A stretch of 57,193 nucleotides of DNA from positions 1 through 57,193 of IMG/VR virus record IMGVR_UViG_3300032331_001351; one strand, 5' to 3'. Made by a program: the position numbers and the translations under genes. Source of the DNA: a virus (taxonomy: Duplodnaviria > Caudoviricetes). Below, in pieces: positions 35,958-52,229 of the stretch. The notes beneath the pieces were generated by a model that did not search any database, was not told where the DNA came from, and saw only the letters and a program-made list of their open reading frames with translations. The first letter of the stretch is position 1, and each line of letters opens with the position of its first letter.

Positions 35958-38096
35958 TTATATCCCAAATTTACCACGTTCAATGGCTTCAACAACTTCC
36001 TCATTGACACGTAGGTAGTGGTTGGCACGACCTTGCGGTTTCTCTAGCTCGACGCGCTCAAGCGAGCCGTCGTTCAGGAGACTGGTTACGGCGCGTTCCT
36101 TGCGCTCTTGACTGGCTTTGACGCCGCCTTGTGCCACGGGCAAGCGCTCATAGTAGGAGCGGGACTTGCCGGGGTCTTTGCGTACAAGGTCAAGCACCTC
36201 GTTACAGATGCGTGCCCATTGGTCTTGCTCTTTTTGTTCCTTGCGGTCTTCCTTCATCTGAGTGCGTTCGCCCTGCTTGAGTGGGCGGGCGACCGAGTGA
36301 CTGAACCAGATCTCTTTGTCGTAGCCCAGCACGTCTTTATGGCGCTCTTTGTTTGACACGAGGTCAAAGGTGAGTTCCGGAAAGGCGGTAGGGAACCTGA
36401 CCTTGACCGCTTTGAGCACGCGGGGGGCGTCCTCGTAATCGCCGTCTTTGAACACGGTATACACGCCTTGTGCGTCCCCGGTCCAAGCCGACGCACCCCT
36501 CGGGGACAGGAAGTCAGACTCGGTCATCCCAGCGATCTTTGACGTGTGGCTGACGATGACGATTGGGAACAGCGCAAAGGACTGTTTGATGTACGCCATT
36601 GCGCGCCCCACCTCCGCGTTGTCGTTCTCGTTTTCTAAATCAAACACCGCGTTAGCTGTATCAAAGATGACCAGCGGAAGCGCCGAGTGCATTGAGCCGT
36701 CGGCTTTCTCGTTGTCCACTGTCCATTCTTTGTACTCCTCAGCGACTTGAGACACGACCTTGGGGTCGAGCCGTTGAGCACTGATGACCCGTACCCGCTC
36801 GTCAAAGTCAGAGACCTTCATCCCGGTGTAGCCCCAGGAGTACAGCGAGTAAATGACCCGTTGAACCTGCACCACTGACTCAGTAATGATGATGACGTTA
36901 CGGCGCACTGCCGGTTTTAAAGCATAGTCATGCGGGCACAAGTGAGCGGAAGCTAACGCCATGGGCACGATGAGGGTCGTTTTACCGACTCCGGGAGCAC
37001 CAGCGACTACGTTCACCCCGGTTGACATGAAGTCATCGTACAAGTATTCAAAGACGTTGACCTGACCCGCGCCGCTGTCGGTTGCCCGCTTCAGGCTCAG
37101 CGGGTGCACTTCAGGTGTCCCGTCAGGTTTGTCAGCTTGTTGTTGATGCACATCATTTTTGTTCCCCACCCACCCGTTATCAATCGCCATGCGGAAAATT
37201 GAGCGGTAAGTGATTGAGTGCGGAGTGCTGATGTCTCGCTCCCATTTACGCCGTTGCGCCGAGGCATCAAATTTGTCGCTGGTTGCCGCCCATTCGGTCC
37301 AAATTTTGTAGCCGTTCTCGCCGTAAGGCTTGAGCACCATACCGACGTTGACCCACGTCGTATAGTCATCAGCGTCAACGTGTTTGAGCGCAGAGCGCAA
37401 ATCGTCAAACGTCTGAGCCGTGGCTACCGGAACCCCACCGCGCTCAGTCAGGCTATAGTTCACTGGAGGTCGTGCCTTACTCGCTATAAGCTGAGGTAAG
37501 GGGGAGGGCTTTGCCGGACGGGTTTGACTCAGCGGCGAGCGCCCTTGTTGCCATTTGTAATCTCCTGAGGGTCCGAGCGTAGGAGCGACGCAGATATAGC
37601 CGTGATGCTTGAGGTCAAGCCCCTTGCCCAGCGTGCCGGGGTAAGTCATGTCCTCATCAGCTGTAAACAACCTATGCTCCCCGCCGCCTTGAGTCACCGC
37701 CGTACAGTCGGAGTGCATGACGCCGTGTTCAGCTTCAAGTTGCGCTAGTGACTCAACACCGCCGTTCTGCGGGTCAATGTCCAGCGCCAGCAGTCCCGAG
37801 TCGGCTAGGGAAATACCTATACCCGCATCAGGATCCGTCGCCCACCAATCTCTGATGACTTGTTCATTTGTAGTTGAATCCTGATGCCCATGCGGAACCA
37901 GTTCAGACTGAGGATGCTTGCCCGCCTTGTGACCCTTTTCAGTATTAGGACGACCGCACCGGCACTGCCCGTTCTCGTCTACTGACCACACCGGCAACAC
38001 GTGCCAACCGAGCTTTGCGTAAGCCAGTGCGTAATCTAATGTCGCTGGTCCTTTAGTGTCTACCGCCCAAATGTGCTTGGGAGTCTTGCTGGTCAT
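35958..38096 (-). CDS. Bifunctional primase-polymerase with PriCT-2 and RecA-type (AAA_25/RepA-like) helicase domain
   Basis: AL.YA..GW.VLP, GKHP, LDIDP.NGG and T.GGG.H (prim-pol); Y..W..VGM.L...W..W (PriCT-2); GAPGVGKTT, IFDT, HTSK and RGASAW. Confidence 0.88.
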   Translation of the reverse strand: MTSKTPKHIWAVDTKGPATLDYALAYAKLGWHVLPVWSVDENGQCRCGRPNTEKGHKAGKHPQSELVPHGHQDSTTNEQVIRDWWATDPDAGIGISLADSGLLALDIDPQNGGVESLAQLEAEHGVMHSDCTAVTQGGGEHRLFTADEDMTYPGTLGKGLDLKHHGYICVAPTLGPSGDYKWQQGRSPLSQTRPAKPSPLPQLIASKARPPVNYSLTERGGVPVATAQTFDDLRSALKHVDADDYTTWVNVGMVLKPYGENGYKIWTEWAATSDKFDASAQRRKWERDISTPHSITYRSIFRMAIDNGWVGNKNDVHQQQADKPDGTPEVHPLSLKRATDSGAGQVNVFEYLYDDFMSTGVNVVAGAPGVGKTTLIVPMALASAHLCPHDYALKPAVRRNVIIITESVVQVQRVIYSLYSWGYTGMKVSDFDERVRVISAQRLDPKVVSQVAEEYKEWTVDNEKADGSMHSALPLVIFDTANAVFDLENENDNAEVGRAMAYIKQSFALFPIVIVSHTSKIAGMTESDFLSPRGASAWTGDAQGVYTVFKDGDYEDAPRVLKAVKVRFPTAFPELTFDLVSNKERHKDVLGYDKEIWFSHSVARPLKQGERTQMKEDRKEQKEQDQWARICNEVLDLVRKDPGKSRSYYERLPVAQGGVKASQERKERAVTSLLNDGSLERVELEKPQGRANHYLRVNEEVVEAIERGKFGI

Positions 38097-39643
38097 TGTT
38101 CTGTGTCTCCGTAAAAGAATTCCTCAAGCACGTTCCAGTATTGACCAGACCGACGGACGTACACTTCATCAGGTACGCGAGCGCCTTTCATTTGCCACGT
38201 TAAAGTGTCTGCGGGGGATGGTAAGTTTACCGCAAGCTGCCGCGAACCAAAAAACTTTAAGGTCTTCCGGTCGGGAACTTCGGTGTTGATGAAATTGGTT
38301 CCGCGAATCTTGATGCCTTCCTCGCTCACGCAGTTGTAGTTGACAAGCAGTATCGGCACCTGGGGGTTGCGCTTAGTGCGGATAGCGACCGTATTAGTTG
38401 ATTCAACTTGCATTTTGAGAACCGAGCCGTCCTTGGCCATTTGCCCGGTCATGGGGTCAATGGGTAACAGTTTGTGAGCGCCAATTACTTTTTCCCGCTC
38501 ACGCAACGCTCGCTGCTTAGCGGGGATGGCTTCAACTTTTTCAAGAGTTTCTTCGGTGTAGAAGGTTTCATACATGTCAACCCCGCCCAGCCGTTGCAGG
38601 TTGCCAACGAAGTCCAGTATCAGACAGTTCTTTTTGTCATCAGCTAGGCGTGTGCCCCGACCCTGGATTTGAACCCACAGAGAGGAGGAGAGAGTTGGTC
38701 TCAGGCACACAATGCAGTCAAGCGCCGGGAAGTCAAAGCCGGTGGTAATCATATCCACAGAGCAAAGCACGCGGGACTCACCTGATTTGAATTTGCGTAA
38801 TGAATCGCTGCGCTCGTCGCGGGTGATTGCGCCAGCCATCACGTCCGTCACCCAACCCGTCTCAACCGCAATCACTTCCGCTGCACGTTCAGCTGCGTCA
38901 ATAGTTGGGCAGTACACCGCAATATGCTTACGGTTGCCGGCGAGTTGCGGTAGTGAACGCGCCACGGCACGCAGCCATACCACGTCCTCCCGCTTGTCAA
39001 CGTCAGTCATCACGTAGTCGCCATTGGCTTTACGCGCCCCGTCAAGGTCAAGCTGTACGGTGGTTTCAACTCCTACTAGCGGGCAGAGGTAGCCGTCGCC
39101 TACAGCTTGTGGTACGGTATAGCTATAGGCGAGTTGATCAAACCAGAACTGGTCACCTTCCCCGTGAATGACCCCGTTGTCCATTCGCCACGGCGTTGCG
39201 GTCATAGCCACGCGCCCCGCGTCACGGTAGCGGTGTAGCACCGACTCATAGAGCGAACGCTCGCCCTTGTTATGCGGTACGCGGTGAGCCTCGTCAATAA
39301 TGATGAGGTCAGGCGGTTGCATTTCAGCCTGAACGCCCAGTATGCTTTGAATGGTGCCAAAGGTGACCGGCTCAAAACGGTCTTTACGTTTGAGTCCTGC
39401 GCAAACTATTCCGGGGTTGACTCCACTATAGCGCTTATAGGCGGCGGCGTTTTGCTCAACCAGCTGTTGAACGTGGGTGAGCGCCCAAACGCGGCGGTTG
39501 GTTTTCTTATAGTGATCCGCTAGGGCGGCAATGATGAGCGATTTGCCCGTACCGGTAGCAAGTTGAAGCACCGGATGGTGTGCTCCCCCTAGGGACGCTA
39601 TAGCGGCGTCGTAGGCTTCTTGCTGGTAAAATCTGAGTTGCAT
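38093..39643 (-). CDS. Superfamily 2 helicase (RadD/YejH-like)
   Basis: LRFYQ.EA, ATGTGKS, DEAH, TATP.R, TTGFD.P and Q..GRG.R motifs. Confidence 0.9.
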   Translation of the reverse strand: MQLRFYQQEAYDAAIASLGGAHHPVLQLATGTGKSLIIAALADHYKKTNRRVWALTHVQQLVEQNAAAYKRYSGVNPGIVCAGLKRKDRFEPVTFGTIQSILGVQAEMQPPDLIIIDEAHRVPHNKGERSLYESVLHRYRDAGRVAMTATPWRMDNGVIHGEGDQFWFDQLAYSYTVPQAVGDGYLCPLVGVETTVQLDLDGARKANGDYVMTDVDKREDVVWLRAVARSLPQLAGNRKHIAVYCPTIDAAERAAEVIAVETGWVTDVMAGAITRDERSDSLRKFKSGESRVLCSVDMITTGFDFPALDCIVCLRPTLSSSLWVQIQGRGTRLADDKKNCLILDFVGNLQRLGGVDMYETFYTEETLEKVEAIPAKQRALREREKVIGAHKLLPIDPMTGQMAKDGSVLKMQVESTNTVAIRTKRNPQVPILLVNYNCVSEEGIKIRGTNFINTEVPDRKTLKFFGSRQLAVNLPSPADTLTWQMKGARVPDEVYVRRSGQYWNVLEEFFYGDTEQ

Positions 39644-39847: not shown

Positions 39848-39903
39848 TCATTCATTGGTTAGCGCAGTGTTAACCATGATAACTGAATAACTGGAGAACT
39901 GAC

Positions 39904-40203
39904 ATGAACATCATCGCATCCCTTACCGCCCGCATCGAAGAATACCGCGCTACTAACAAGCAGCCGTGCAAAAACTACGCCACTGAAGCCGCCGCTGAAA
40001 AAGCTACTGCTCAAATGGCGCAAGACGCAGCCAACTACTTCCACAAAGAGCGCGGTGTTGAGGCTCGTCCCGCTCAGTACGTTGTGTTTTACAATGAGGC
40101 TTGGGGTCGTTGGGTTGGCGGTATCAACATGAGCGAGCTGATTCAGCGCTCATCAAGCACCGGCGGCTACCTTGGTTACTGCACAGGTTTCTTCGTTTTC
40201 TAA
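39904..40203 (+). CDS. Early hypothetical protein
   Basis: First gene after the early promoter; SD GGAG within the AATAACTGGAGAACT motif. Confidence 0.75.
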   Translation: MNIIASLTARIEEYRATNKQPCKNYATEAAAEKATAQMAQDAANYFHKERGVEARPAQYVVFYNEAWGRWVGGINMSELIQRSSSTGGYLGYCTGFFVF

Positions 40204-40252
40204 ACAACGGGGCGCAAGCCCCTCCTAATAACTCAATAACTGGAGAACTCAC

Positions 40253-40498
40253 ATGACACAAACCATCACCATCCGCGTTACTAAGAATTACGGCACCACA
40301 GTCGTTTACCCCGTCTGTGACACCGCTAAGAAGCTCGCCGAGCTTATCGGCACTAAGACGTTCACTAACGCCGCCTTGCATAAGCTCGTTGACTTAGGCT
40401 ACGAGATGACTGTTGAGCAGCCGAAGTTTTCTTTCAACGCGCCCTACAACGATCAGTTTTTGGGTGCACAGCCAGCCCGCGCTGGTCAAGACTACTAA
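40253..40498 (+). CDS. Early hypothetical protein (NYG....YPVC..AK.LA.L.GTKT.T)
   Basis: Strong SD; recurring small phage protein pattern. Confidence 0.75.
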   Translation: MTQTITIRVTKNYGTTVVYPVCDTAKKLAELIGTKTFTNAALHKLVDLGYEMTVEQPKFSFNAPYNDQFLGAQPARAGQDY

Positions 40499-40521
40499 CT
40501 CAATAACTAGGATAACTAATC

Positions 40522-40734
40522 ATGAAAAACAACTCTTGGAAAAAAGACTATTTGGTCGTGTTGCATAGCGACTATGACAACACTTGGTCAGACAAGACTA
40601 TCCCTTGCACGTTCCTGCAAGCGATTCGTTTTGTTCGCGCTAAGCATTGGAATCATGCAATGGACAAAGGTACTGTGCGTATCGTTACTCTCGCTGAGTT
40701 CGCGACCCTCCCTAAAGCTGAGGTGAAAGCATGA
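40522..40734 (+). CDS. Early hypothetical protein
   Basis: 70 aa, SD AGGA. Confidence 0.65.
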   Translation: MKNNSWKKDYLVVLHSDYDNTWSDKTIPCTFLQAIRFVRAKHWNHAMDKGTVRIVTLAEFATLPKAEVKA

Positions 40735-40910
40735 TCTCACGTATAGTTTTCTTACTCATCATACTGCTCGCTTTTGGTGTGGTTGGCACGTTTGATTACG
40801 AGGACGCGCTGATGGAAGAAGCCGCCTACTGCGACCGTCTTCAAAACAAAGTGCACACCGATTACAACAACCTCAAAGCCACCTGCGTTGCGGGTCATTG
40901 GACTAAATAA
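40731..40910 (+). CDS. Small exported/membrane protein (59 aa, MISRIVFLLIILLAFGVVGTFDYEDA...YC...C)
   Basis: Read by hand; ATGA overlap, SD GAGG, N-terminal hydrophobic segment. Confidence 0.6.
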   Translation: MISRIVFLLIILLAFGVVGTFDYEDALMEEAAYCDRLQNKVHTDYNNLKATCVAGHWTK

Positions 40911-40928
40911 ATTCCTTGGAGATTTGAA

Positions 40929-41357
40929 ATGAATACAGTAAACTTTTCCAGCATGACGACCCCACAATTGGTTTCGTTCTACAATAGGCACAGCACCACT
41001 CCGGTCAAGCGGTTCAGCGACCGTAAGACCGCCGAGCGGCGCTGTATTGAACTCTTTGAGAGTTTGCTCTCACCTGTATCTAGTAGCAAAGTGATTAAAC
41101 AAGTGGCTGATACTTCTAACCGCCCCGTTATGAAAGACTCTCTCAAGCTCGACCGCACAATCATCTGTGTGAACCTCGGTCAGACTTGGAAGAACGCATA
41201 CCAGATGTGGCGCGACAACCCTGACTGGATGACTAGCGCTCAGCAAGACCGCCTGACCGCCCAGCTCTACGCCGCTGCTAAGACCGGTGAGCAGAAGATT
41301 ATTGAAATCAATGGACGCAGTTTCATGCTCGTCAACATTAAAAGGGTAAAGAAATGA
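40929..41357 (+). CDS. Hypothetical protein (L...YN......VKRFSDRKTAERR N-terminal motif)
   Basis: 142 aa, SD GGAG. Confidence 0.7.
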   Translation: MNTVNFSSMTTPQLVSFYNRHSTTPVKRFSDRKTAERRCIELFESLLSPVSSSKVIKQVADTSNRPVMKDSLKLDRTIICVNLGQTWKNAYQMWRDNPDWMTSAQQDRLTAQLYAAAKTGEQKIIEINGRSFMLVNIKRVKK

Positions 41358-41581
41358 CTGAGAACGCACCTGAGTTGTTAGACGTGCTGTGGTTCAACAG
41401 CGGTAAAGGGATTGTAGGCGTTGCTGCCGTACAAACTGAGCCGACTGTCATCAAGTTTTACATCTGCCCGGTTGATGGTTTTAATGAAGTCATTGACGCT
41501 AATTTGGTCATGTCACATGGCGCAGCTTTCCCTGAAGTTGCCGGTTACGCATTATTTGGTATTACGGAGACAACAATATGA
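41354..41581 (+). CDS. Hypothetical protein
   Basis: 75 aa with ATGA overlaps on both sides. Confidence 0.65.
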   Translation: MTENAPELLDVLWFNSGKGIVGVAAVQTEPTVIKFYICPVDGFNEVIDANLVMSHGAAFPEVAGYALFGITETTI

Positions 41582-42534
41582 ACACAGTATTCCCAGAGTT
41601 GGCGCTTGACCGCAACGTAGTCAAGTGGGAGCAACACCTCGGCACGCAGACACCATGGGAGAACCGCAAGGGTCTCTGGTTCAAACGTGATGACTACTTT
41701 GCCCCGCTCGGCTACAGCGGTCCTAACGGCTCAAAGATGCGCCAGCTGATTTGGTACGTAAACAAGTTCCGCGCAGGTAAGACCCACATTGTCACTGGCG
41801 CAAGTATTCAATCCCCTCAGCTGAGCATGAGCGCCATCGTTGGTGCACATTACGGGTTACGCGCCCGTCAAATCGTATACAGCAAACCTGAAACCGTATT
41901 ACGTCACGAGAACCCGCGCATCGCCTACGGCTTTGATGCTGAGTTTGAATACGCTTCTGGTCCGTACAATCCTATTTTACAGCGTAAGGTGGTTGACCTG
42001 ACGCAGCCCACCTCGCTCGTAGTTGAGTACGGTATCACTGTGCCGCATGACCGCTACTCTGAGGATGACGTGCGTAAGTTTCACGAGGTCGGCGCTCATC
42101 AGACCTCTAACGTCCCGCCTGAAGTCAAGCGCCTTATCGCTCCTGCCGGGTCTTGTAATTCGTTGACGAGCATCATGCTCGGCTTGAGCCGTGATCCGCA
42201 CAATATTGATGAACTGTTCACTATAGGAATCGGTCCCGACAAGCGCGGCTGGATGCGTCAGCGCCTTGCGTACATCGGTATTGACGTCGACAAGCTGCCG
42301 TTCAGATGGAAGCATTACAGTCTGCACGACAACGGCTACAGCAAGTATAGCGATCACTTCACCGGTGAGAGTTTTGATGGCATCAAGTTTCATCCGACCT
42401 ACGAGGCTAAGATGTGGCGCTGGTTGACACACCATAACCAGTTGGAGTATGATGACAGCACCGCATTTTGGATTGTAGGCAGCGCCCCCGACACAAAAAT
42501 TGTTGAACCCTTTTACACTAGGAGACCCGTATGA
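41578..42534 (+). CDS. PLP-dependent fold-type II enzyme; putative amino acid-DNA decarboxylase
   Basis: TP.E...LWFKRDD...NGSKMRQ (PLP lysine), APAGSCNS phosphate loop and HPTYEAK; sits in the hmdU cluster. Confidence 0.8.
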   Translation: MNTVFPELALDRNVVKWEQHLGTQTPWENRKGLWFKRDDYFAPLGYSGPNGSKMRQLIWYVNKFRAGKTHIVTGASIQSPQLSMSAIVGAHYGLRARQIVYSKPETVLRHENPRIAYGFDAEFEYASGPYNPILQRKVVDLTQPTSLVVEYGITVPHDRYSEDDVRKFHEVGAHQTSNVPPEVKRLIAPAGSCNSLTSIMLGLSRDPHNIDELFTIGIGPDKRGWMRQRLAYIGIDVDKLPFRWKHYSLHDNGYSKYSDHFTGESFDGIKFHPTYEAKMWRWLTHHNQLEYDDSTAFWIVGSAPDTKIVEPFYTRRPV

Positions 42535-42734
42535 AGAACCCTGACAACAAAGACTATCAACCCTGGCTAGAGAAGACCGGCGGTTTTGCCCGTGACATGA
42601 CCATGCTTGAGCGAGTAGCGCTTGAGGTGTTACCGTTTATGGTTTCAAATGACGAGACTGATTTTGCGGAAGACGTTGACGCTGCTTTTTCAGTCGCCAA
42701 GCATTTCTTAGCTGAGAGAGCAAAACACATATGA
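42531..42734 (+). CDS. Small hypothetical protein
   Basis: DMTML...A...AF.VA..FLAER pattern of a common small phage family; ATGA overlaps. Confidence 0.65.
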   Translation: MKNPDNKDYQPWLEKTGGFARDMTMLERVALEVLPFMVSNDETDFAEDVDAAFSVAKHFLAERAKHI

Positions 42735-43729
42735 AAGACTACCGCCTACCGGAAAACCGGGAAGAGTACTTCACGGCGCTCTATAAGATGAATCTTGATT
42801 ACGGGGTTATGCCCGGTCTGGTTTATTTGTACATGCCTGAACTCGCTCGCCGCTATGAGTGGGACGCTGAGCAGAAGCTCTGGTTCGCATTTTTGAACGG
42901 CATGACGCAGAACCCTATAACTTCGCTGCGCTTGTTCACCCGTCTACCTAGCGTTCCCCCTGCGGGCGCTCAGCTGACACATTTCAACGACTGGTTTAAC
43001 GATCAATGGGATACGCTCCAGTTTGACACCGACCGCCGGTATCAGAAACGCGACACCCTTGAAGCTATCAAGACCTACGCTAAGTTGGTTGAGGAGTTTG
43101 GCTCTCAAGAGGCGATGTTGACCGGCAAACCGTACTCAGAGCTTTGGGATCTCGTGCGCAACCGCTACTACAGCTTTGGTCGCCTGTCATCGTTCAGCTA
43201 CCTCGAGTATGTCTACTTGAACGGCTACGGCGCTGACTGTGATGACCTGCTGTTCAGCGATAAGTCGGGCAGCAAATCACACCGTAACGGGATGTTGTTT
43301 TTGATCGGTAAAGATGAGTTGGTTTGGGATAAGCGACTACCTAACGGGCAAGACGGTAACTACCCTAAATTCAAATTAATGTGCGGGTTTTTAGCTTCCG
43401 GTGCCGACACTTTAATTGATGCGTTCAAATTGAATTACCCTAGCGTGCCTAACGTGGGTCGGTTCACTATGGAGTCAAACCTTTGCACGTTCAAGAATCA
43501 TTTCTTCGGTCGGCGCTACCCCGGTGTTTACGCTGACATGGCTCAAGAAAGAATTGACTGGGCTGACGCACGTGACCAGAGCGCCTACACCGAGGTGTTC
43601 AAAGACATGCGGTCACAGCTGCTGCCTGACTGGTTACGGGCTGAATGCGGTGGTAGCTCAGCAATTAAAGTGAACGCGGCGGTTTTCCCTGAGACGGGTA
43701 TGCCTTTCAGAGCGGAGCATTTTCTATGA
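42731..43729 (+). CDS. Amino acid:DNA transferase (aGPT-Pplase2, HhH-glycosylase fold)
   Basis: DYRL.ENR, EQKLW.AFL.G, FGRLSSFSYLE (HhH), SHRNG and ESNLC.FK...RYPG.Y motifs; cluster context. Confidence 0.75.
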   Translation: MKDYRLPENREEYFTALYKMNLDYGVMPGLVYLYMPELARRYEWDAEQKLWFAFLNGMTQNPITSLRLFTRLPSVPPAGAQLTHFNDWFNDQWDTLQFDTDRRYQKRDTLEAIKTYAKLVEEFGSQEAMLTGKPYSELWDLVRNRYYSFGRLSSFSYLEYVYLNGYGADCDDLLFSDKSGSKSHRNGMLFLIGKDELVWDKRLPNGQDGNYPKFKLMCGFLASGADTLIDAFKLNYPSVPNVGRFTMESNLCTFKNHFFGRRYPGVYADMAQERIDWADARDQSAYTEVFKDMRSQLLPDWLRAECGGSSAIKVNAAVFPETGMPFRAEHFL

Positions 43730-44304
43730 AACACGTCATCCTTAGAATCGCTGGCACGTTCGGCTCGGGCAAGACCACCGCTATGCGGGGATTCTTTGAT
43801 TACCCGACTGAGACTTTAATGAGCGGTAAAAAGATCGCCGGATACAAGGTTGACGCTAGCGCTGCCGGAATCACGCAGCCGATCTACGTGGTTGGTAAGT
43901 ATGACAACACGTGCGGTGGCACCGATGCCATCAAGACTCAGGCTGAGATTGCCGAGAAGATCCTGAAAGCGCACCCCCTAGGGCACGTGTTATATGAAGG
44001 CGCTTTGGTGTCTGCGAGCGGACTCGCCGGGCAGGTGACGCAAGCGATTCACCCTACCGGTTGTGACGTGTACGCATTCCTCGATACGCCGCAAGACCTC
44101 TGCGTTGAGCGGGTAAAGGGACGCCGCCTCGCCGCTGGTAATGAGAAAGAGTTCGACCCGAAGAACCTGATTGACAAGTTTGATTCAGTCGTCAACTGTT
44201 ATAAGAACCTGCGCAACGAGGGTACGTATGACGTCCGTAGGATTGACCACACCAACCCGCACCCACAATTAGTAGAAATTATAAAGGAGTACGAAAATGA
44301 TTGA
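43726..44304 (+). CDS. P-loop kinase; putative 5-hmdU DNA kinase catalytic domain
   Basis: GTFGSGKTT, GKY...CGGTD, LYEG and LDTP...C.ERV..RR. Confidence 0.8.
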   Translation: MKHVILRIAGTFGSGKTTAMRGFFDYPTETLMSGKKIAGYKVDASAAGITQPIYVVGKYDNTCGGTDAIKTQAEIAEKILKAHPLGHVLYEGALVSASGLAGQVTQAIHPTGCDVYAFLDTPQDLCVERVKGRRLAAGNEKEFDPKNLIDKFDSVVNCYKNLRNEGTYDVRRIDHTNPHPQLVEIIKEYEND

Positions 44305-45217
44305 CGAATGCCCATACCCGATGCCGACGGCTGAGACGGTATGCTCGATGGAGGGGTTGCTTTACTTCATTTGGGAACGCGAAGCTATTCGTCTTGCCCG
44401 TGAAAACGGTCACGCCGCGCCCTGGACTAAAGACCCGGTGCTCGCCAAGTACAAGTTTACTAACATTCACCGCAGCGATGATCGAGGCTCACAATGGATC
44501 ATTGATCACTTGATAGAACCAGCAGCGGCTAACGGCGATGAGCACTTGTGGTTTACGTTGTTGATCGCTCGCCTCATCAACTGGCCACCTACGCTACAGG
44601 TGTTGATTGACAAAAAAGTCATACCTTGCGCTCCTGAAAACTTTGATGCTGAGATGTTTGAGCACGCGCTTGAGCGCCTCAAAAAAGACGGTAAGAAGGT
44701 TTACTCGGGCGCGTATATGCTTTACCCTACAAAGATGGAGCCGGGGGGTAACAAGTCCAAGGCGGTCGCTAAGTACATCATCGGCAGCGCTATTGAGAAC
44801 GCTGACAACATCAGCGCCTCACTGTGGAACAACGAGCGGGGAATGTCTATTGAGCGGTTTGTAACTGAGCTGAGTAAGTGCTTCGGCATCAGTACTTTTA
44901 TTGCCGGGCAAGTAGCCGCAGACCTGACCTACACGGGTATGGACGTTGAAGATCTTTACACTTTTGCGCCTATTGGTCCCGGTAGCTCTCGGGGTTTGAA
45001 CTACTTACTAGGTAAACCGCCGTTCGCAACTTGGAAACAGAAAGAGTTCAACGCTGAGCTGAGTAACATCTTTGCCCACGCTGCTGACCGGCTTGACATC
45101 ATTGACATGACGCTGCATGATGTTCAGAACTGCATGTGCGAGTACAGCAAATACTGCCGCGCAGTCCTGGGCGAAGGTAAACCAAAAACAATTTATAAAA
45201 CAGAAACGGAGTTTTAA
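44297..45217 (+). CDS. 5-hmdU DNA kinase helical domain (aGPT-Pplase1)
   Basis: FIWERE.IR......PWT.DPVL..YKFTN..R.DDR, R.INWP.TL, G...F.A.Q...DL, GPGS.RGL and QN..CE.SKY. Confidence 0.85.
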   Translation: MIDECPYPMPTAETVCSMEGLLYFIWEREAIRLARENGHAAPWTKDPVLAKYKFTNIHRSDDRGSQWIIDHLIEPAAANGDEHLWFTLLIARLINWPPTLQVLIDKKVIPCAPENFDAEMFEHALERLKKDGKKVYSGAYMLYPTKMEPGGNKSKAVAKYIIGSAIENADNISASLWNNERGMSIERFVTELSKCFGISTFIAGQVAADLTYTGMDVEDLYTFAPIGPGSSRGLNYLLGKPPFATWKQKEFNAELSNIFAHAADRLDIIDMTLHDVQNCMCEYSKYCRAVLGEGKPKTIYKTETEF

Positions 45218-45218
45218 G

Positions 45219-46256
45219 ATGGAACTGTTAGTAAGAAATGTCAATCAAGCGTTTAGCGAAATCTTCTGGAAAATGAAGGTGCTCAATCTCCAGCCAGAAC
45301 AGACCCGTAACGGTCTCGCTATGGTTTACCCTGAGCCGGTGATCACAGTTTATAAATATCCGTACGAGCGCGTCCTGTTTGACAAAAAGCGCGACGCTAA
45401 CCCTATCTTTCATCTGATGGAGTCAATCTGGATGCTCGCAGGGCGCAATGACGTTGCGTTCCTACAGCAGTTCAACAAGCGCATGGTCGAGTTCAGCGAC
45501 GACGGTAAGACGTTTAACGCCGCCTATGGTCACCGCTGGCGTAAGCATTTCGGTCGTGACCAGCTTGATGAAGTTATCAGGTTGTTGCGCCGCGACCCTA
45601 CTACCCGTCAGGCTGTTGTTCAGATTTGGGACGATGCAGACTTGGCTAAGAAGACTAAAGACAAAGCATGCAATACGCAGATCATTTTTGATACGCGTAA
45701 CAACCGCCTGAACATGACGGTGTTCAACCGGTCAAATGATATCTGGTGGGGTGCTTACGGCGCTAACGCGGTGCACTTTAGTTTCTTGCAGGAGTTTGTC
45801 GCCTCCGCTATAGCTATGCACTTAGGCGTGTACCGTCAGGTCAGTAACAACTTACACCTTTACACAGAGCTTTATAACGCTAAAGATTACCTGTTTGCGC
45901 CGCCTGACGCAGACAGCTATGACCTTTACCGTAAAGGTGAAGTGCGCCCCCTGCCAATCATGTTGAACGGCGAGTACAAGTTGTTCCTAGCTGAATGTGA
46001 GATGTTCTGCCACGATCCTTTTAACGAGCGTATACACTACGCTAACCCGTTCTTTGAGCACGTGGCTCACCCAATGGCTATGGTCAGCAAGGTACGTAAT
46101 ATACACGCCGGTGACGGGCGTAGCTACGCGGCTAAAATCCGCGCTGCCGATTGGAAACGCGCCACTTTCGATTGGATTGACCGCCGCGAACACGCTCGTA
46201 AAATGAAAGAGGAAGATGACGAGATAAACGAGTTGCGTAAAGCTGTGAAAAAATAA
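45219..46256 (+). CDS. Thymidylate synthase-family dUMP hydroxymethylase
   Basis: RDANP.FH..E..WML.GR, AYG.RWR, KD..CN (catalytic Cys) and NRSND.WWGAYGAN..HF (Asn indicates dUMP specificity); likely start ATG at 45219. Confidence 0.85.
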   Translation: MELLVRNVNQAFSEIFWKMKVLNLQPEQTRNGLAMVYPEPVITVYKYPYERVLFDKKRDANPIFHLMESIWMLAGRNDVAFLQQFNKRMVEFSDDGKTFNAAYGHRWRKHFGRDQLDEVIRLLRRDPTTRQAVVQIWDDADLAKKTKDKACNTQIIFDTRNNRLNMTVFNRSNDIWWGAYGANAVHFSFLQEFVASAIAMHLGVYRQVSNNLHLYTELYNAKDYLFAPPDADSYDLYRKGEVRPLPIMLNGEYKLFLAECEMFCHDPFNERIHYANPFFEHVAHPMAMVSKVRNIHAGDGRSYAAKIRAADWKRATFDWIDRREHARKMKEEDDEINELRKAVKK

Positions 46257-46257
46257 C

Positions 46258-46287
46258 TTTACTTTTGTTAAAAATGTGAGCTATAAT
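46258..46287 (+). promoter_or_regulatory. sigma70-type promoter TTTACT-N18-TATAAT
   Basis: AT-rich intergenic region ahead of the HD/polymerase operon. Confidence 0.6.
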
Positions 46288-46319
46288 TTTTAACATAACT
46301 GCTAACTGGAGAACTTTTT

Positions 46320-46808
46320 GTGAAACAAACCCTTGATTTTATTCTGGCTGGAAGCGAAGTAAAGCGGTATCATACCGTGACTACGCTCGTGTCTGAGACC
46401 GTCGGTCATCATTCACACGGCGTGGCTATGCTTTGCCTTCTTTTCGACCCTATGGCGAGCCGTCAGGTGCTGATGGCTGCGATGTTTCATGACCTCGCGG
46501 AGTTTCAAACCGGGGACATCCCCTCACCGGCAAAGCGTGAGTTTGGCATCGGCGGTAAGGTAGACGAATTGGAACTGCGTCTGATGACCGCTGCCGGAAT
46601 CATAATGCCTCACCTCACCCCCGAAGACAAGCGCACTCTCAAACTCTCTGACGTAGCTCAGGGGGCGTTGTTTTGCGCCCGAGAGCTTTCCCTCGGTAAT
46701 AAGCGTATGCGCCGCGTCTTCGATCGTTACATGAGCTACGCTGACGAGATGATGCTCGTCGGACGTGAGCGTGAAATTTTCAACATGATAAAGGACTACG
46801 CAGCATGA
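46320..46808 (+). CDS. HD-domain 5'-deoxynucleotidase (YfbR-like)
   Basis: VKRYH...ETVGHHS, HDLAE..TGDIPSP.K and K..D motifs. Confidence 0.85.
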   Translation: MKQTLDFILAGSEVKRYHTVTTLVSETVGHHSHGVAMLCLLFDPMASRQVLMAAMFHDLAEFQTGDIPSPAKREFGIGGKVDELELRLMTAAGIIMPHLTPEDKRTLKLSDVAQGALFCARELSLGNKRMRRVFDRYMSYADEMMLVGREREIFNMIKDYAA

Positions 46809-47089
46809 GCGCGGCTAATCAAAAACAAATCGGCGGTAATCACTACAAGCACGGCGGTGAGGAACACTGGGACCGCGTGCATCGTTTGAATTTGAATTAC
46901 TTTCAAGCAGCCACCACTAAGTATGTTGAGCGTTGCTACCTGAAAGGTAATCCGATTCAAGACTTACAGAAAGCCGTTCATTTCCTTGAGAAGTTGATCG
47001 AGATCGAGCAGCGTAAAGCTGATGAAAAATGCGTCGCGGTTCTAAGTGATGGCAGCGAGCCGACCTCCGGTTATGTTAACCAAGACTGA
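46805..47089 (+). CDS. DUF3310/SaV-like protein, possible nucleotide kinase
   Basis: QIGGNHYK, F......KY..R...KG...DL.KA.H.LE.LIE. Confidence 0.75.
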   Translation: MSAANQKQIGGNHYKHGGEEHWDRVHRLNLNYFQAATTKYVERCYLKGNPIQDLQKAVHFLEKLIEIEQRKADEKCVAVLSDGSEPTSGYVNQD

Positions 47090-47090
47090 C

Positions 47091-48932
47091 ATGGGGACTT
47101 GGGTGTTTGATACTGAAACTCTACCTAATCGTACTTTGTTCTGCGCTAAGAACATTGAGACGGGGGAGTGGTTTGACTTGTGGCGTCACACTGACGACGC
47201 CCCGGCTCGTCTTACCCGTTTCGTACAGCAGCCCGACACGACATTGATCGGCTTCAACAGTAAGTCGTTTGACAACGCGGTCGTGGCGGCTTTCTGCCTC
47301 GGCAGGAGTGAGATAGAGATCAAGCGTATTGCTGATGACATCATCACCAATCGTCTTGCGCCGTGGAATTCGATGCGCAAGCACAATTTACGTGACATCA
47401 TTCTTGATGACATTGACTTGATTGAGGTCGCCCCGTCATTTGTAGGTTTGAAAGCCTACGGCGCTCGCATGCACATGCCTAAGTTGCAGGACATGCCTAT
47501 CGCCCATGACGCGATGATCACCCCCGAGCAAGAGCCCATGCTTTTGGAGTACTGCCACAACGACGTAGATACGACCGCCGAGCTGTTGAATCAGCTCGAA
47601 GGTGAGTTATTACTGCGCGTTGAGATGAGCCGCCGGTACGGAGCAGACATGCGTAGCAAGTCTGATTCGCAGATGGCTGAACAGGCTTACATCACTAGCA
47701 TGGGTCTCAAGCGTCAAGATAATGAGATACCTAAAACTGTTAAATATACCCCTCCGGCATTTTTAAAGTTTATGGACGCAGAGCTACAGGGGCTGCTTGA
47801 CCGCGTCTCTAAGCACGTGTTCAATATGAACTCGGTCACTGGGCACGTGCAGCTTCCAGATTTCCTCGGTGAACAAGCAATCGTTTTTGGCAGCGGTCAA
47901 TATCAACTCGGCGTGGGCGGTATACACAGCGTGCATGATAAGCAGGTTTGTTACGTTGCCGGTGATGATTACATTTGTGATATTGATGCAGCGTCGTTCT
48001 ACCCAAGTATCATCCTTGAGTGCGGCTTTGTGCCGGTTGCATTGGGTAAGCGGTTTGTTGAAGAGTATCGCAAGATTTACGAGCGCCGCCTCGAGGCAAA
48101 GCGCAACGGCGACAAGATAACTGACGCAACGCTGAAGATTTCCCTGAACGGCACGTTCGGTAAGCTGGCTAGCCGTTACTCAGTGTTGTACTCGCCGGAC
48201 TTGATGTTGGCGGTTACGTTGACTGGCCAGTTCACTCTGCTCATGTTGATTGAGTGGCTTGAGCGAGCTGGGGCTGTGACGCTATCAGCTAATACTGATG
48301 GCATCGCAATTCATTTCAACAAGGAGAAAAAAGAGCTGATTGAAAAAGTAGTTAACAAATTTAGTGAGGTGTCTGGGTTCGCGTTTGAATACACGTATTA
48401 CCGCGCCCTCGCTATGAAAGACGTCAACAACTATATTGCGGTCAAACCCGACCGTAAGCTGAAAGTGAAAGGCATTTATGCGCCACTCTCTCTTAAGAAA
48501 AACCCGACGGCACAAGTTGCAGCGGATGCGGTTGGAGCATGGTTGGCAAGCGGTATACCGTTTGAAACAACTATCAAAAATGCTCCATTCACTGACTTCA
48601 TCAGCGCCCGGAACGTCACTGGTGGCGGTCAGCAGAATAGCTTCTACTTGGGTAAAGTTGTACGATGGTATCAGTCGACCGACGCTGCTCTTGAACCGAT
48701 TAAGTATGCTTCGAACGGTAATAAAGTACCGAAGACAGAAGGCGCTAGAGCCTGCATGACCCTGCTTGATAAACAGATTCACCCACTTGATCTTGACTAT
48801 AACTGGTATAACAAAGAGGCGATCAAAATCGCCATCGCGGTTGGCTGCGCACATTATTTGACCTCGGAGCAACTCGCTCTAGTGGCACCACCACCAAAGA
48901 AAACTAGGAAAGTTAAAAATGGAACAAGGTAA
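47091..48932 (+). CDS. Family B-type DNA polymerase with 3'-5' exonuclease
   Basis: FDTET, GFNS..FD and YC.ND (Exo I-III); DAASFYPS, K..LNG.FGK and ANTDG (Pol A-C); likely start at 47091. Confidence 0.9.
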   Translation: MGTWVFDTETLPNRTLFCAKNIETGEWFDLWRHTDDAPARLTRFVQQPDTTLIGFNSKSFDNAVVAAFCLGRSEIEIKRIADDIITNRLAPWNSMRKHNLRDIILDDIDLIEVAPSFVGLKAYGARMHMPKLQDMPIAHDAMITPEQEPMLLEYCHNDVDTTAELLNQLEGELLLRVEMSRRYGADMRSKSDSQMAEQAYITSMGLKRQDNEIPKTVKYTPPAFLKFMDAELQGLLDRVSKHVFNMNSVTGHVQLPDFLGEQAIVFGSGQYQLGVGGIHSVHDKQVCYVAGDDYICDIDAASFYPSIILECGFVPVALGKRFVEEYRKIYERRLEAKRNGDKITDATLKISLNGTFGKLASRYSVLYSPDLMLAVTLTGQFTLLMLIEWLERAGAVTLSANTDGIAIHFNKEKKELIEKVVNKFSEVSGFAFEYTYYRALAMKDVNNYIAVKPDRKLKVKGIYAPLSLKKNPTAQVAADAVGAWLASGIPFETTIKNAPFTDFISARNVTGGGQQNSFYLGKVVRWYQSTDAALEPIKYASNGNKVPKTEGARACMTLLDKQIHPLDLDYNWYNKEAIKIAIAVGCAHYLTSEQLALVAPPPKKTRKVKNGTR

Positions 48933-49287
48933 TCAACGCACTGTCTATGTGGTTCAAGTAGACAACCATAAAGATCTTTCAGATGCGAAAAAGTATGGTT
49001 CACTACGGGCTGTGTTTGGCAACCCGCGTAAGCCGTACGACACGACGAGTATGATAGCTAAGGCGCGTCGCGTCATGGCTGAATGGCAAGCGGGCGACCA
49101 CCTGCTGATGATTGGCGACCCCACGCTCTGCGCGGTGTGTATGTCAGTGGTTAATGAGAAAGATGACATCATCAATATTTTGAGCTGGGACCGGAACTCG
49201 TTTTCGTACCTACCTCAGCGTTGGGACTTTGGTCAAATGGGTCTCGACTATGACGATTTTGAAGCAGCGGACGACAAACCGCTTTAA
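48919..49287 (+). CDS. Hypothetical protein (VYVVQ...A.KYG...D.LL..GDP...L.WDR)
   Basis: 122 aa, alpha/beta pattern, SD AGGA. Confidence 0.75.
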   Translation: MEQGNQRTVYVVQVDNHKDLSDAKKYGSLRAVFGNPRKPYDTTSMIAKARRVMAEWQAGDHLLMIGDPTLCAVCMSVVNEKDDIINILSWDRNSFSYLPQRWDFGQMGLDYDDFEAADDKPL

Positions 49288-49306
49288 CCCACGAAAGGAG
49301 AACAAA

Positions 49307-50047
49307 ATGTCAAACTGGCAAGATGCCTTGAGAAAAGGTAAACAAGATGTACCGCCCCGTATCTGCATTTACGGGGGTCACGGTATCGGTAAGTCCACCT
49401 TGGCTAGTAAGTTTCCAGCGCCGATTTTTATCAGCACTGAGGACGGTCTAGACTCGTTGGATGTTACCAGCTTCCCGCGTGCAGCTAAGGTTGAGGACGT
49501 GGTCGAGAACATCAAGACTCTCATCAAAGAGGATCATGCGTTCAAGACCGTGGTGATCGACTCGGTTGATTGGCTCATTGAGCCGCTCATCGTGAGCAAC
49601 GTGGAGTCTTCGCATGATGCTAAAGACCTTGCCTATGGCAAAGGTCAGATGCTCGTTGCTGAGGAGTTCCGCGAGATACTGCAAGGACTGGACGTGCTGC
49701 GCGTAAAGCGCCGTATGAACGTCGTGCTGATCGCTCACGCTGCGGTGGTGAAGTTTGAAGACCCGCGCACCGAACCCTACGACCGCTATCAGCCAAAGCT
49801 ACCTAATCGTTGCAATGCGCTGTTGCAGGAGTGGGCTGATGTGCTTGCGTTTGCCGCGTTCAAGGTGATCATTCGCAAGTCTGACTCCGGTTTCAATAAC
49901 CAGAAGAACCGAGGCGTAACAACCGGTGAGCGTTTGCTTCACTTTGTTGAGAACCCCGCTTTTGCTGCAAAGAACCGGTATACCTGTCCTGATGAGATTG
50001 AGATGACAATCGAAAATCTCGAGAAATTGATTCCCATTACTAAATAA
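49307..50047 (+). CDS. Sak4-like AAA_24 ATPase/recombinase
   Basis: IYGGHGIGKST, TVVIDSVDWL, YGKG, LIAH and AKNR; likely start 49307 with SD AAGGAG. Confidence 0.85.
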   Translation: MSNWQDALRKGKQDVPPRICIYGGHGIGKSTLASKFPAPIFISTEDGLDSLDVTSFPRAAKVEDVVENIKTLIKEDHAFKTVVIDSVDWLIEPLIVSNVESSHDAKDLAYGKGQMLVAEEFREILQGLDVLRVKRRMNVVLIAHAAVVKFEDPRTEPYDRYQPKLPNRCNALLQEWADVLAFAAFKVIIRKSDSGFNNQKNRGVTTGERLLHFVENPAFAAKNRYTCPDEIEMTIENLEKLIPITK

Positions 50048-50064
50048 CTGAAGGAGTAATTAAC

Positions 50065-50568
50065 ATGGCTAAATTTGGCTTCGACGTCTCTGACGTCACC
50101 CCTGACACCGGTGCTACCGGTGGTTCTTATGACCCTATCCCTGAGGGCGAGTACATTCTGAAAGCTGTTGAAGCTGAAGAAAAAACAACTAGTGCCGGTA
50201 CAGGTTCTTACATCAAAGTGAAGTTTGAAGTTGTTAAGGGCGAGTTCGCCACCCGCCTGTTGTGGCAAAACTTCAACGTCAACAACCCGTCTGAGAAAGC
50301 TCAGCGTATCGGTCGTCAGCAGATGGTGGCTTGGGCTACTGCTTGCGGTAAGCCGGATGCCGATGATACTGACAAGCTGCTTGACAAGCCTTTCAGCGCG
50401 GCGGTGAGTATTGAGAAAGGTACTGGCGGCTATGCTGACAGCAACCGCATCAAAGCGTTCCTGTTCAACCAAGAAGCCGCCCCCGCCAAGGCAGCGCCTA
50501 AAGCCGCAGCTAAACCTGCCGCCGCAGCCGCGCCCGCCGCAGGTAAGTCAGCTAACCCTTGGGATTGA
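50065..50568 (+). CDS. DUF669-like single-stranded DNA-binding protein
   Basis: YDPIPEGEY, G.G.Y..V.FEV..G, A..IG, N.IK and an Ala/Pro tail ending PWD; follows Sak4. Confidence 0.75.
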   Translation: MAKFGFDVSDVTPDTGATGGSYDPIPEGEYILKAVEAEEKTTSAGTGSYIKVKFEVVKGEFATRLLWQNFNVNNPSEKAQRIGRQQMVAWATACGKPDADDTDKLLDKPFSAAVSIEKGTGGYADSNRIKAFLFNQEAAPAKAAPKAAAKPAAAAAPAAGKSANPWD

Positions 50569-50573
50569 TTTTA

Positions 50574-50661
50574 GGGGTGGTTAAGCCAGCGACTGAGGAT
50601 GTCAATGTGGGGGGTTTTCTGGCTTTCTACCTCACCTCGTTAACGACCAAATCAGCACCCC
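50574..50661 (+). ncRNA. Candidate pseudoknotted structured RNA
   Basis: GGGGUG/CACCCC closes a long interrupted hairpin; the apical loop CUGGCUU (50619-50625) is complementary to the 5' bulge AAGCCAG (50583-50589). Confidence 0.5.
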
Positions 50662-50683
50662 GCCTTATAACAGGAGAACTTAA

Positions 50684-51523: not shown

Positions 51524-51996
51524 TTACAATCGGTATTGATCCAGGACTCAGCGGCGCTATCGGCGTTCTACGTGACGGCGTTTTTGTAGCCGTGGAAGAT
51601 ATGCCGATCGTAGCTAAAGGCTCGGGTGCTGTAAAGAATGAAGTAGACCCTGCCGGGCTAATCACTATGCTCAGGAGGCACGCCCCCGCTGAGGAGGCGG
51701 TGTGCGTTGCACTTGAGCGGGTGAACGCTATGCCCGGTCAGGGGTCATCTTCTATTTTTAGTCTCGGGGATAGCTTCGGCTCTGCCCGAGCTTCTATTGC
51801 GGGGTGTCGTTTTGAAACAGTTTACATGACCCCGACGCAATGGAAGAAACATTTCAAACTAACTAGCGACAAAGAAATGAGCAGGGCGCTCGCGATTCGC
51901 ATGTTCCCTGAAGCGCCGCTCAACTTGAAGAAACACTCTGACCGTGCGGAGGCGTTGCTCATGGCTCGCTGGCTTTACGAGACGAGGTACAAATGA
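51520..51996 (+). CDS. RuvC-like Holliday junction resolvase
   Basis: IGIDPGLSGAI, LE.V..MPGQG, P..WKK and D.AEALL. Confidence 0.85.
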   Translation: MITIGIDPGLSGAIGVLRDGVFVAVEDMPIVAKGSGAVKNEVDPAGLITMLRRHAPAEEAVCVALERVNAMPGQGSSSIFSLGDSFGSARASIAGCRFETVYMTPTQWKKHFKLTSDKEMSRALAIRMFPEAPLNLKKHSDRAEALLMARWLYETRYK

Positions 51997-52229
51997 TTGA
52001 CACGCGTATAAGCGGCATACCCTGCAAGGCAGAGATGGTCGGCGGGTATTACCAAAAGCCAGACTATGGCACATGGGCTAGCGACGTAGACTACTACGGA
52101 GGCTGGTTTGACGTAGAGTTTGAAATCTATGACCGTAAAGGCTATCGAGCAAAATGGCTTGAGAACAAAATGACCGCTAAAGATGAAGAGCGGATTGTCA
52201 ATGAACTAATTGAACAAGAAGGACGATAA
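51993..52229 (+). CDS. Hypothetical protein (GIPC...SD.DYYG...DRKGY.A.WLE.K)
   Basis: 78 aa, coupled to neighbours. Confidence 0.7.
   Translation: MIDTRISGIPCKAEMVGGYYQKPDYGTWASDVDYYGGWFDVEFEIYDRKGYRAKWLENKMTAKDEERIVNELIEQEGR

Follow-up and report, generated by a model that had tools for sequence, protein, structure and literature searches.

A complete and conserved gene set of ViI-like composition predicted for thymine hypermodification in an uncultured lake phage

The window analyzed here is the whole virus record IMGVR_UViG_3300032331_001351 of IMG/VR, 57,193 bp in length. Positions 41578-47089 of its plus strand carry eight translationally coupled genes. Judged by homology, they constitute a complete and well-conserved gene set for thymine hypermodification in an uncultured lake phage. 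The composition is that known from phage ViI and not a new system, and the chemistry is most probably also the one already known from ViI. By hypermodifying thymidine, phages shield their DNA from restriction and other nucleases, and such pathways supply enzymes for DNA labelling. Of interest here are the chimeric and compact operon, the abundance of its lineage in lakes, the variants of the gene for a pyridoxal 5'-phosphate (PLP) enzyme, and the donor specificity of the amino acid:DNA transferase.

The gene list of ViI includes the kinase gp67, the PLP enzyme gp226, the clade-1 protein gp160, and the clade-2 protein gp247 (Lee et al. 2018, Table 3; Lee et al. 2021, Table 1). An adjacent thymidylate synthase (TS)-family gene is also present in the ViI record. 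Because the gene list of the window equals that of ViI, the most economical reading is a route from deoxyuridine monophosphate (dUMP) to 5-(2-aminoethoxy)methyl-2'-deoxyuridine (5-NeOmdU). Before replication, the TS-family enzyme would hydroxymethylate dUMP to 5-hydroxymethyl-dUMP (5-hmdUMP), while the HD nucleotidase, perhaps with the DUF3310 protein, would bias the nucleotide pools. The B-family polymerase of the phage would insert 5-hydroxymethyl-2'-deoxyuridine (5-hmdU) into DNA instead of T. After replication, the P-loop kinase would phosphorylate a fraction of 5-hmdU to 5-phosphomethyl-2'-deoxyuridine (5-PmdU), and the helical clade-1 protein may work with the kinase in this step. The transferase would flip the base, and the side-chain oxygen of free L-serine would displace the phosphate, leading to O-serinyl-T (O-SerT). 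K53 of the PLP enzyme would form an aldimine with the free alpha-amine, and decarboxylation would yield 5-NeOmdU, a cationic base that would block restriction and other nucleases.

The chances that the cassette encodes this ViI-type pathway with 5-NeOmdU as its product are about even. Each reaction has been shown for homologues (Lee et al. 2021). For the window, the presence, homology, folds, and conservation of each enzyme were observed; serine as the donor, decarboxylation by the PLP enzyme of the window, and replacement of only part of T are inferred. In another Ackermannviridae phage sharing this gene list, 5-NeOmdU at ~16% of T was detected by high-performance liquid chromatography-mass spectrometry, according to a preprint (bioRxiv 10.64898/2026.05.19.726188). 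An earlier note on this DNA had proposed a pathway from 5-hmdU through 5-PmdU and an amino acid adduct to a decarboxylated adduct, and the homology of the gene set supports this type of pathway. Among the products which the note considered, the 5-NeOmdU-like base is the best reading, as the gene list is that of ViI and gp226 has its homologue in the PLP enzyme.

Homology to ViI gp226 extends along the full length of the PLP enzyme (31% identity, E 2e-60, BLASTP). Its K53 is aligned with K92 of gp226, the lysine proposed for the internal aldimine (Lee et al. 2021, section 19), and is invariant across an alignment of 63 diverse relatives. No Pfam family matched at E<=0.01. In the AlphaFold2 model (mean predicted local distance difference test score, pLDDT, 97.2), the best folds in the Protein Data Bank (PDB) found with Foldseek were D-cysteine desulfhydrase (4d8t) and the 1-aminocyclopropane-1-carboxylate (ACC)-deaminase homologue 1j0a, with a template modelling (TM) score of 0.65. 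Threonine deaminase, CysM, and other fold-type II enzymes followed. 1j0a is the template that Lee et al. reported for gp226. In tblastn, near-full-length matches were found in 348 phage records, mostly ViI-like and Vibrio phages, with 30-33% identity among the matches listed. M6 gp52 showed a weak match of 53 residues (E 0.004) at the C-terminus of the PLP gene. The gp226-type family has 459 representatives at E<=0.001 in a library of 1.8 billion proteins. Nine long members were tested; four are fused to a PF18724 transferase domain and three to a kinase or AAA domain. One long member is a kinase-PLP-transferase triple fusion. Such domain fusions have been described (Lee et al. 2021, section 21).

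It is improbable that this enzyme is something other than a decarboxylase, catalyzing elimination, replacement, or deamination on the DNA-linked amino acid or supplying a metabolite to the transferase. Its nearest solved folds are desulfhydrases, deaminases, and synthases, and its weak NCBIfam matches, to the ACC-deaminase/D-cysteine desulfhydrase family and to an enzyme of coenzyme M synthesis, are in line with such a role. So is the existence of relatives without the PLP gene, 10 loci in the sequence covered, including two complete genomes with none. On the other hand, gp226 is a decarboxylase acting on O-SerT and the only characterized member of the family (Lee et al. 2021, section 19). The fusions with transferase and kinase domains link these PLP proteins with the DNA pathway, and beta-elimination on O-SerT would merely give back 5-hmdU.

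The transferase matches PF18724 well above its cut-off of 26.2 bits (Table 1) and shares 26% identity with the serine:DNA transferase of ViI, gp247 (E 9e-31). In tblastn, 376 phage records were matched. The best matches were mycobacteriophages (36%) and Montesquieu (38%), followed by Vibrio phages (30-31%). By host, Salmonella phage records were the most numerous (164), and Pseudomonas was outside the ten most frequent host names listed. The phylogeny suggested in the earlier note, against the enzymes of ViI, M6, PaMx11, and PhiW-14, was reconstructed by maximum likelihood with 19 sequences. The deepest split (support 100/99) separates PhiW-14, M6, and PaMx11 from a group of ViI and Vibrio phages, two actinophages, and the window group, and thus the transferase of the window is on the ViI side. 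Its clade is sister to the actinophage pair, Montesquieu and a mycobacteriophage homologue (support 91/93).

The AlphaFold2 model of the transferase (pLDDT 93.7) has only one real match in PDB, PaMx11 gp46/PUGT (8z2m and 8z2n; probability 1.0, TM 0.50-0.57). The sequence search against PDB gave 0 matches, and a fold search was required to reach 8z2n. The roles of residues in gp46 are known (Wen et al. 2024, PMC11472151, sections 14 and 16). In a residue pairing made at ~14-15% identity, the metal ligands, the DNA-loop Arg, and the base clamp E243/T244/C247 of gp46 are conserved in the window, the clamp as E248/S249/C252. The glycine ligands W146/K150 of gp46 correspond to W/K in M6, Y/K in PhiW-14, L185/N189 in ViI, and L152/S156 in the window. 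S156 is invariant in an alignment of 34 sequences. Given the position in the ViI-side clade and the absence of the Trp/Lys pair, the transferase belongs with the side-chain-linking ViI type rather than with the N-linking type. The partner enzyme points to the same linkage. The PLP enzyme needs a free alpha-amine (Lee et al. 2021, section 19), and there is no radical S-adenosylmethionine (SAM) isomerase; thus the amino acid must attach via its side chain.

Among the cultured phages whose transferases are most similar to that of the window are the Coopervirus mycobacteriophages, for example, Zemanar (L099, 1-2826). The Zemanar gene adjoins a ParB-like gene and a gene annotated as queuine tRNA-ribosyltransferase. 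No kinase, TS-family, or PLP gene was found within the 9.7 kb inspected. This setting suggests that Zemanar puts a transferase of the same clade to another use.

Several observations weigh against a pathway identical to that of ViI. The PLP enzyme is just 31% identical to gp226 and lacks a ~48-residue insertion of the latter. Fold-type II enzymes usually catalyze eliminations and replacements, not decarboxylation. The transferase, at 26% identity to gp247, forms its own clade, and the sister actinophage clade is of unassigned specificity. At the position of gp46 Lys150, the ligand of the glycine amine, it has an invariant Ser where ViI has Asn, in an alignment of ~15% identity. The kinase scores 23.7 bits against PF18748, below the curated cut-off of 27. 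ViI has a second kinase, gp243 (HMUD2 type), which is without a homologue in the window; BLASTP with the kinase gave E 0.94, and tblastn of gp243 against the window gave no match at E<=1.

Some of these points would suit another donor. It is possible, though clearly not the favored reading, that the same logic operates with another side-chain nucleophile (threonine, homoserine, cysteine, lysine, or ornithine) and yields an undescribed decarboxylated adduct. The separate clade of the transferase and Ser156 in the acceptor pocket, in place of ViI Asn189, are consistent with this. So is the faster evolution of the transferase relative to the PLP enzyme among close relatives (number of nonsynonymous substitutions per site, dN, 0.09-0.14 vs. 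0.01-0.04). Undescribed products are moreover expected among metavirome clusters (Lee et al. 2021, section 21). Nevertheless, O-SerT is the substrate of gp226, with which the partner PLP enzyme aligns over its entire length. The transferase shares the Leu of ViI at the other acceptor position and falls in the ViI superclade, and the cassette has no extra tailoring gene. If the donor is not serine, the lineage would yield new bases. The window would then contain an undescribed decarboxylated thymine and its sisters without the PLP gene would keep the carboxylated adduct, a series of at least two new bases; this extended version is likewise only tentatively proposed.

The other known thymine products are N-linked. 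It is very unlikely that the window makes an N-linked base of the M6, PaMx11, or PhiW-14 kind, that is, a glycinyl-derived or putrescinyl thymine. The kinase, helical-protein, hydroxymethylase, HD, and DUF3310 genes are indeed closest to and syntenic with those of M6 and PaMx11. However, the deepest split separates the transferase from theirs, it does not have the Trp/Lys pair (Tyr/Lys in PhiW-14), and an N-alpha-linked glycine has no free amine for the PLP enzyme (Lee et al. 2021, section 19). Homologues of the radical-SAM enzyme, the flavin adenine dinucleotide (FAD) lyase, and the PaMx11 acetylase are also missing. No radical-SAM domain (PF04055) was detected in the whole genome, and no homologue of the radical-SAM isomerase M6 gp53 was found in the window by tblastn. 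PaMx11 gp47 (FAD lyase) and gp48 (acetyltransferase) gave chance-level matches in tblastn (E 0.42 and 0.048), outside the candidate genes. The absence of radical-SAM, FAD, and acetylase tailoring noted earlier therefore holds for homologues of M6 gp53 and PaMx11 gp47/gp48 and for PF04055 genome-wide. A putrescinyl-like product, which had been listed among the possible bases, is unlikely; the PhiW-14 transferase falls on the far side of the deepest split, and putrescinyl thymine is made without a PLP enzyme (Lee et al. 2021, Table 1). The putrescinyl route was rejected on the transferase clade and the acceptor residues.

The genome contains a GNAT-like acyl-CoA N-acyltransferase gene at 4742-5176 on the minus strand, among the late genes (phrog_4470, 3.7e-21; the Pfam match is sub-threshold). 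Its relatives are found in Bcep22-like Burkholderia phages, Ralstonia phages, some Pseudomonas phages, and other phages, and it is unrelated to PaMx11 gp48. It was set aside as a tailoring acetylase, as it is 36 kb away, among late genes, and its relatives are not in PaMx11. N-acetylation of the product amine by this enzyme is conceivable.

The supply of 5-hmdUMP would depend on the TS homologue, which is predicted to be a dUMP hydroxymethylase. M6 and PaMx11 each have a single TS-family gene, to which it shows 42% identity; for the SP10 and ViI homologues the value is 38-39%. Its best relative in PDB is the CMP hydroxymethylase MilA (1e-22), compared with 5e-12 for thymidylate synthases. In an alignment of 10 sequences, the catalytic Cys and the Asn of the "GAN" motif are present in the window enzyme. 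This Asn is found in all eight enzymes of cassette phages (including the window, ViI, M6, PaMx11, SPO1, SP10, and PhiW-14), whereas the dCMP hydroxymethylase T4 gp42 has Asp. The eight hydroxymethylase homologues also share a Cys-Asn dipeptide, which is Cys-His in T4 td. It is hardly credible that the cassette leaves virion DNA unmodified, with the TS homologue being an ordinary thymidylate synthase or the genes being relics. The Pfam match is indeed to the thymidylate synthase family, but the protein is far below every NCBIfam thymidylate synthase cut-off and nearer to a hydroxymethylase. In addition, purifying selection acts on all genes, each of which is intact, dozens of relatives retain the cassette, and an intact copy is present in a high-depth contig from an independent lake study.

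HD and DUF3310 homologues likewise follow the hydroxymethylase in M6 and PaMx11, and the DUF3310 protein is 43% identical to the M6 homologue. It shows no similarity to T7 gp1.7 in BLASTP (E 0.64), and the PHROG label "nucleotide kinase" was not adopted for this reason. The polymerase encoded directly downstream, which would have to incorporate 5-hmdUTP, has 37-43% identity to polymerases from siphophages, among them NP1 and Vibrio phages.

The kinase is related to 5-hmdU DNA kinases by tblastn: PaMx11 gp49 (33%, 2e-16), M6 gp54 (30%, 7e-8), and ViI gp67 (28%, 6e-7). Phosphorylation of 5-hmdU in DNA was shown for M6 gp54 and ViI gp67, and 5-hmdU DNA kinase is the listed function of PaMx11 gp49 (Lee et al. 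2021, section 15 and Table 1). All 34 sequences aligned keep the Walker A motif unchanged. ViI gp67 belongs to phrog_800, which is mis-annotated as "terminase small subunit". Of the profile searches suggested in the earlier note, those for PF18724, PF18723, and PF00303 gave matches, and the kinase alone stayed below its cut-off.

The helical-protein gene overlaps the kinase gene by 8 nt, and its product is 31% identical to M6 gp55 (E 1e-35). PF18723 homologues are present in all five reference phages (ViI, M6, PaMx11, PhiW-14, and SP10), and in SP10 the domain is fused behind the kinase (also in Table 3 of Lee et al. 2018). The M6 protein of this family is dispensable for glycine transfer in lysates (Lee et al. 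2021, section 16). The helical protein may be a partner of the kinase or a second transferase. Prediction of a complex with the kinase gave a score of 0.00, which is no support and not evidence either way. A profile-profile comparison between the helical protein and the transferase gave a probability of 0.3; the transferase alignment held long fusions, so that a common fold is not disfavored.

Table 1. Genes of the predicted thymine hypermodification cassette and the adjoining polymerase gene
Feature	Coordinates	Strand	Evidence
gp226-family PLP enzyme, fold type II, predicted decarboxylase of DNA-linked amino acid	41578..42534	+	BLASTP ViI gp226; phrog_3650 9e-74
67-aa ORF, accessory, outside core	42531..42734	+	no Pfam, PHROG or NCBIfam match
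Amino acid:DNA transferase (AADT; formerly aGPT-Pplase clade 2)	42731..43729	+	PF18724 ADDT 64.7 bits, 1.4e-17
P-loop 5-hmdU DNA kinase (5-HMUDK), 192 aa	43726..44304	+	phrog_800 9e-17; tblastn to validated kinases
HMUDK_hel / aGPT-Pplase clade-1 protein	44297..45217	+	PF18723 155 bits, 3.1e-45
TS-family dUMP hydroxymethylase (5-hmdUMP), predicted	45219..46256	+	PF00303 75 bits, 6.5e-21; phrog_5131 7e-106
HD-domain YfbR-like 5'-deoxynucleotidase, presumed pool-shaping	46320..46808	+	PF12917 8e-10; PF13023; NF003009 1.9e-7
DUF3310 protein	46805..47089	+	PF11753 20.9 bits (cut-off 24); phrog_5839 8e-21; phrog_236 2.5e-14
Family-B-like DNA polymerase, directly downstream of cassette	47046..48932	+	phrog_1252 6.6e-159

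The seven components named in the earlier note are all recovered on the plus strand, where the note placed them, by Pfam, PHROG, or BLAST matches, and their description as a contiguous and mostly coupled run is confirmed. At six of the seven junctions, a start codon overlaps or directly adjoins the preceding stop codon, and the only uncoupled junction is a 63-nt gap preceding the HD gene. Two details differ. The TS-family gene had been given a start at 45117; the start is most likely 45219, because homology begins there. The 67-amino-acid open reading frame (ORF) between the PLP and transferase genes was missing from the earlier gene list. Promoter-like sites (16 vs. 8.8 expected) and terminator-like sites (9 vs. 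10.4 expected) are too weak to define transcription units. One promoter-like site is inside the 63-nt gap.

Compared with ViI and other Ackermannviridae, which make 5-NeOmdU, the window has the same enzyme classes, and neither has an isomerase, a lyase, or an acetylase. The PLP enzymes are homologous over their full length with the same lysine, the transferases are in the same superclade, and the kinase is homologous to gp67. The differences are as follows. The homologues of gp226, gp247, and gp67 are just 26-31% identical, and ViI has two kinases (gp67/gp243) while the window has one. The ViI genes are scattered over a genome of 157 kb, whereas those of the window form one coupled operon in 57 kb, together with a podophage-like virion module.

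The Pseudomonas siphophages M6, with 5-(2-aminoethyl)-2'-deoxyuridine (5-NedU), and PaMx11, with 5-acetylaminomethyl-2'-deoxyuridine (5-AcNmdU), share with the window the gene order of kinase, helical protein, hydroxymethylase, HD, and DUF3310. No other reference phage in the comparison matches any of these five genes better (kinase 30-33%, hydroxymethylase 42%). Their own transferases, in contrast, are N-alpha-glycine enzymes of the other deep clade. M6 requires a radical-SAM isomerase and a PLP enzyme, and PaMx11 an FAD lyase and an acetyltransferase; the window has no homologues of these apart from the 53-residue match to gp52. By its homologies, the cassette is a chimera of an M6/PaMx11-type half, from the kinase to DUF3310, and a ViI-type pair of transferase and PLP enzyme. 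That a ViI-type tailoring pair has recombined with a supply and kinase module of the M6/PaMx11 type lends support to the modular and combinatorial view of Lee et al. (2021), who found many metavirome contigs with combinations of these genes. With respect to PaMx11 gp46/PUGT itself (8z2m, 8z2n), the window transferase is similar in its metal ligands, base clamp, and DNA-loop Arg and differs in W146/K150, replaced by L152/S156, at 14-15% identity.

The same composition is found in the Glutamicibacter siphophage Montesquieu. Its gene set shares with that of the window the clade-2 transferase, the TS-family hydroxymethylase, the clade-1 protein, P-loop proteins, and a PLP enzyme that is ACC-deaminase-like and 30% identical to its counterpart in the window (E 6e-30). 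It differs in its actinobacterial host, gene order, and family-A polymerase, and it is of siphophage morphology (PMC9331655). Hypermodification terms do not appear in the Montesquieu paper. The earlier note had argued that the virion background of the window makes a new base likely. This argument is not supported, as the morphotype has no bearing on the chemistry and Montesquieu, a cultured siphophage, already has the same composition. In the literature searched, judged by titles, abstract starts, and passages and with the supplementary contig lists of Lee et al. (2021) outside the scope, no such cassette was reported in a podovirus.

The cassette is not restricted to the window. A scan of IMG/VR revealed at least 80 related loci with transferases 54-86% identical to that of the window. 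The kinase, helical protein, and hydroxymethylase follow in the same order in 71 of the 72 loci having at least 3.2 kb downstream, and HD, DUF3310, and polymerase genes continue in 42 of the 44 loci having at least 6.2 kb downstream. The 67-amino-acid ORF is present in 6 of 80 loci, with a ratio of nonsynonymous to synonymous substitution rates (dN/dS) of 0.11 against L015. The dN/dS values of the eight genes against close relatives are 0.03-0.13 where dS is unsaturated, the swapped kinase allele aside, and 0.03-0.05 for the PLP enzyme. The cassette is under purifying selection.

The kinase exists in two alleles among the related loci, 39-50% identical to that of the window in 26 loci and 60-94% identical in 49. 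The comparison included the window (43726-44304), L013-L018, L019, L022-L025, and others. In L015, neighboring genes are 83-98% identical to those of the window and the kinase is 49% identical. A divergent kinase amid closely similar neighbors indicates a gene-sized swap within the operon.

The PLP gene is variable in its presence. Of the 80 loci, 56 carry it just upstream and 3 at another place in the locus; 10 lack it although at least 1.5 kb of upstream sequence is available, and 11 could not be judged. The ten loci without it are L044 and L071 (whole records G001 and G003), L028 (G004), L047 (G002), L037, L038, L046, L053, L076, and L080. Whole records were searched for four of the ten. 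Two 100%-complete records (60,781 and 57,497 bp) have no PLP gene anywhere. A 19-kb fragment retains a PLP remnant of 25 residues, and a record of 101,830 bp has a PLP gene outside the locus. Phages without the PLP gene may keep a carboxylated amino acid adduct as the mature base. Close relatives with and without the gene are a natural experiment on the contribution of the decarboxylation step. In some relatives, extra genes are inserted between the PLP and transferase genes: DHH/DHHA1 phosphoesterases (L027, L052) and a MazG-like protein (L069). A conserved ORF of 248-255 amino acids without a Pfam match is found at the same place (L058:2916-3662, L069:3726-4493, and L075:3461-4219), and it is a candidate for an extra tailoring or DNA-modifying enzyme.

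The lineage was also observed in an independent metagenome study of lake water. Contigs of two runs cover the entire 5.5-kb stretch at word depths of 220 and 48. They show 156 differences from the cassette of the window and no indels. In the PLP gene of the independent lake contig, 34 of the 40 differences listed are at third codon positions. The public runs containing the phage all consist of assembled contigs, and no RNA run was listed among them. As a compact, coupled operon in a widespread freshwater lineage with a podophage-type virion module, the cassette is convenient for heterologous reconstitution.

The record is rated complete, and both of its ends are identical over 123 bp. An ORF of ~1,125 amino acids on the minus strand (window 1-1405 and 55101-57193) spans the record ends via this terminal repeat. 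Because the ORF leaves the left end and resumes at the right one, the record acts like either a closed circle or a permuted genome. Its "direct terminal repeat" may thus reflect the overlap left by a circular assembly instead of a physical end of the genome. The minus strand of ~1-35,000 carries late and structural genes, followed by primase and helicase genes at 35,958-39,643 on the same strand. The plus-strand module for replication and nucleotide metabolism, ~39,900-53,000, houses the cassette. No tRNA was detected in the window. Megablast of the cassette against 50,697 phage records gave no match, indicating a lineage without a close cultured relative in that collection.

The portal protein shows 51% identity to that of Caulobacter phage RW. 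Identity drops to 31-35% for the portals of Roseobacter phages CRP-901/902 and of pelagiphage HTVC023P, whose type is termed Podoviridae in an abstract. Among 30 ORFs of the virion region scanned with PHROG, many of which are unannotated, no tail-tube, sheath, or tape-measure family was matched. A podovirus-like virion, as described in the earlier note, is plausible from the homology of the portal and other virion genes; it is this homology, and not the morphology itself, to which the description applies. In phage RW, the cassette is not annotated within the 50 kb inspected of its 62-kb record.

Other genes were observed in the late region of the minus strand. At 17686-18030, amid the tail-fiber region, there is a DUF5856/Dps-like gene (phrog_858, 1.2e-21; PF19174, 8.8e-18) whose PHROG label is "starvation-inducible transcriptional regulator". 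Two adjacent genes at 11248-13605 and 13615-15912, encoding 785 and 765 amino acids, both match phrog_19943 and phrog_24898 (virion structural or tail fiber). They are probably a tandem pair of receptor-binding proteins.

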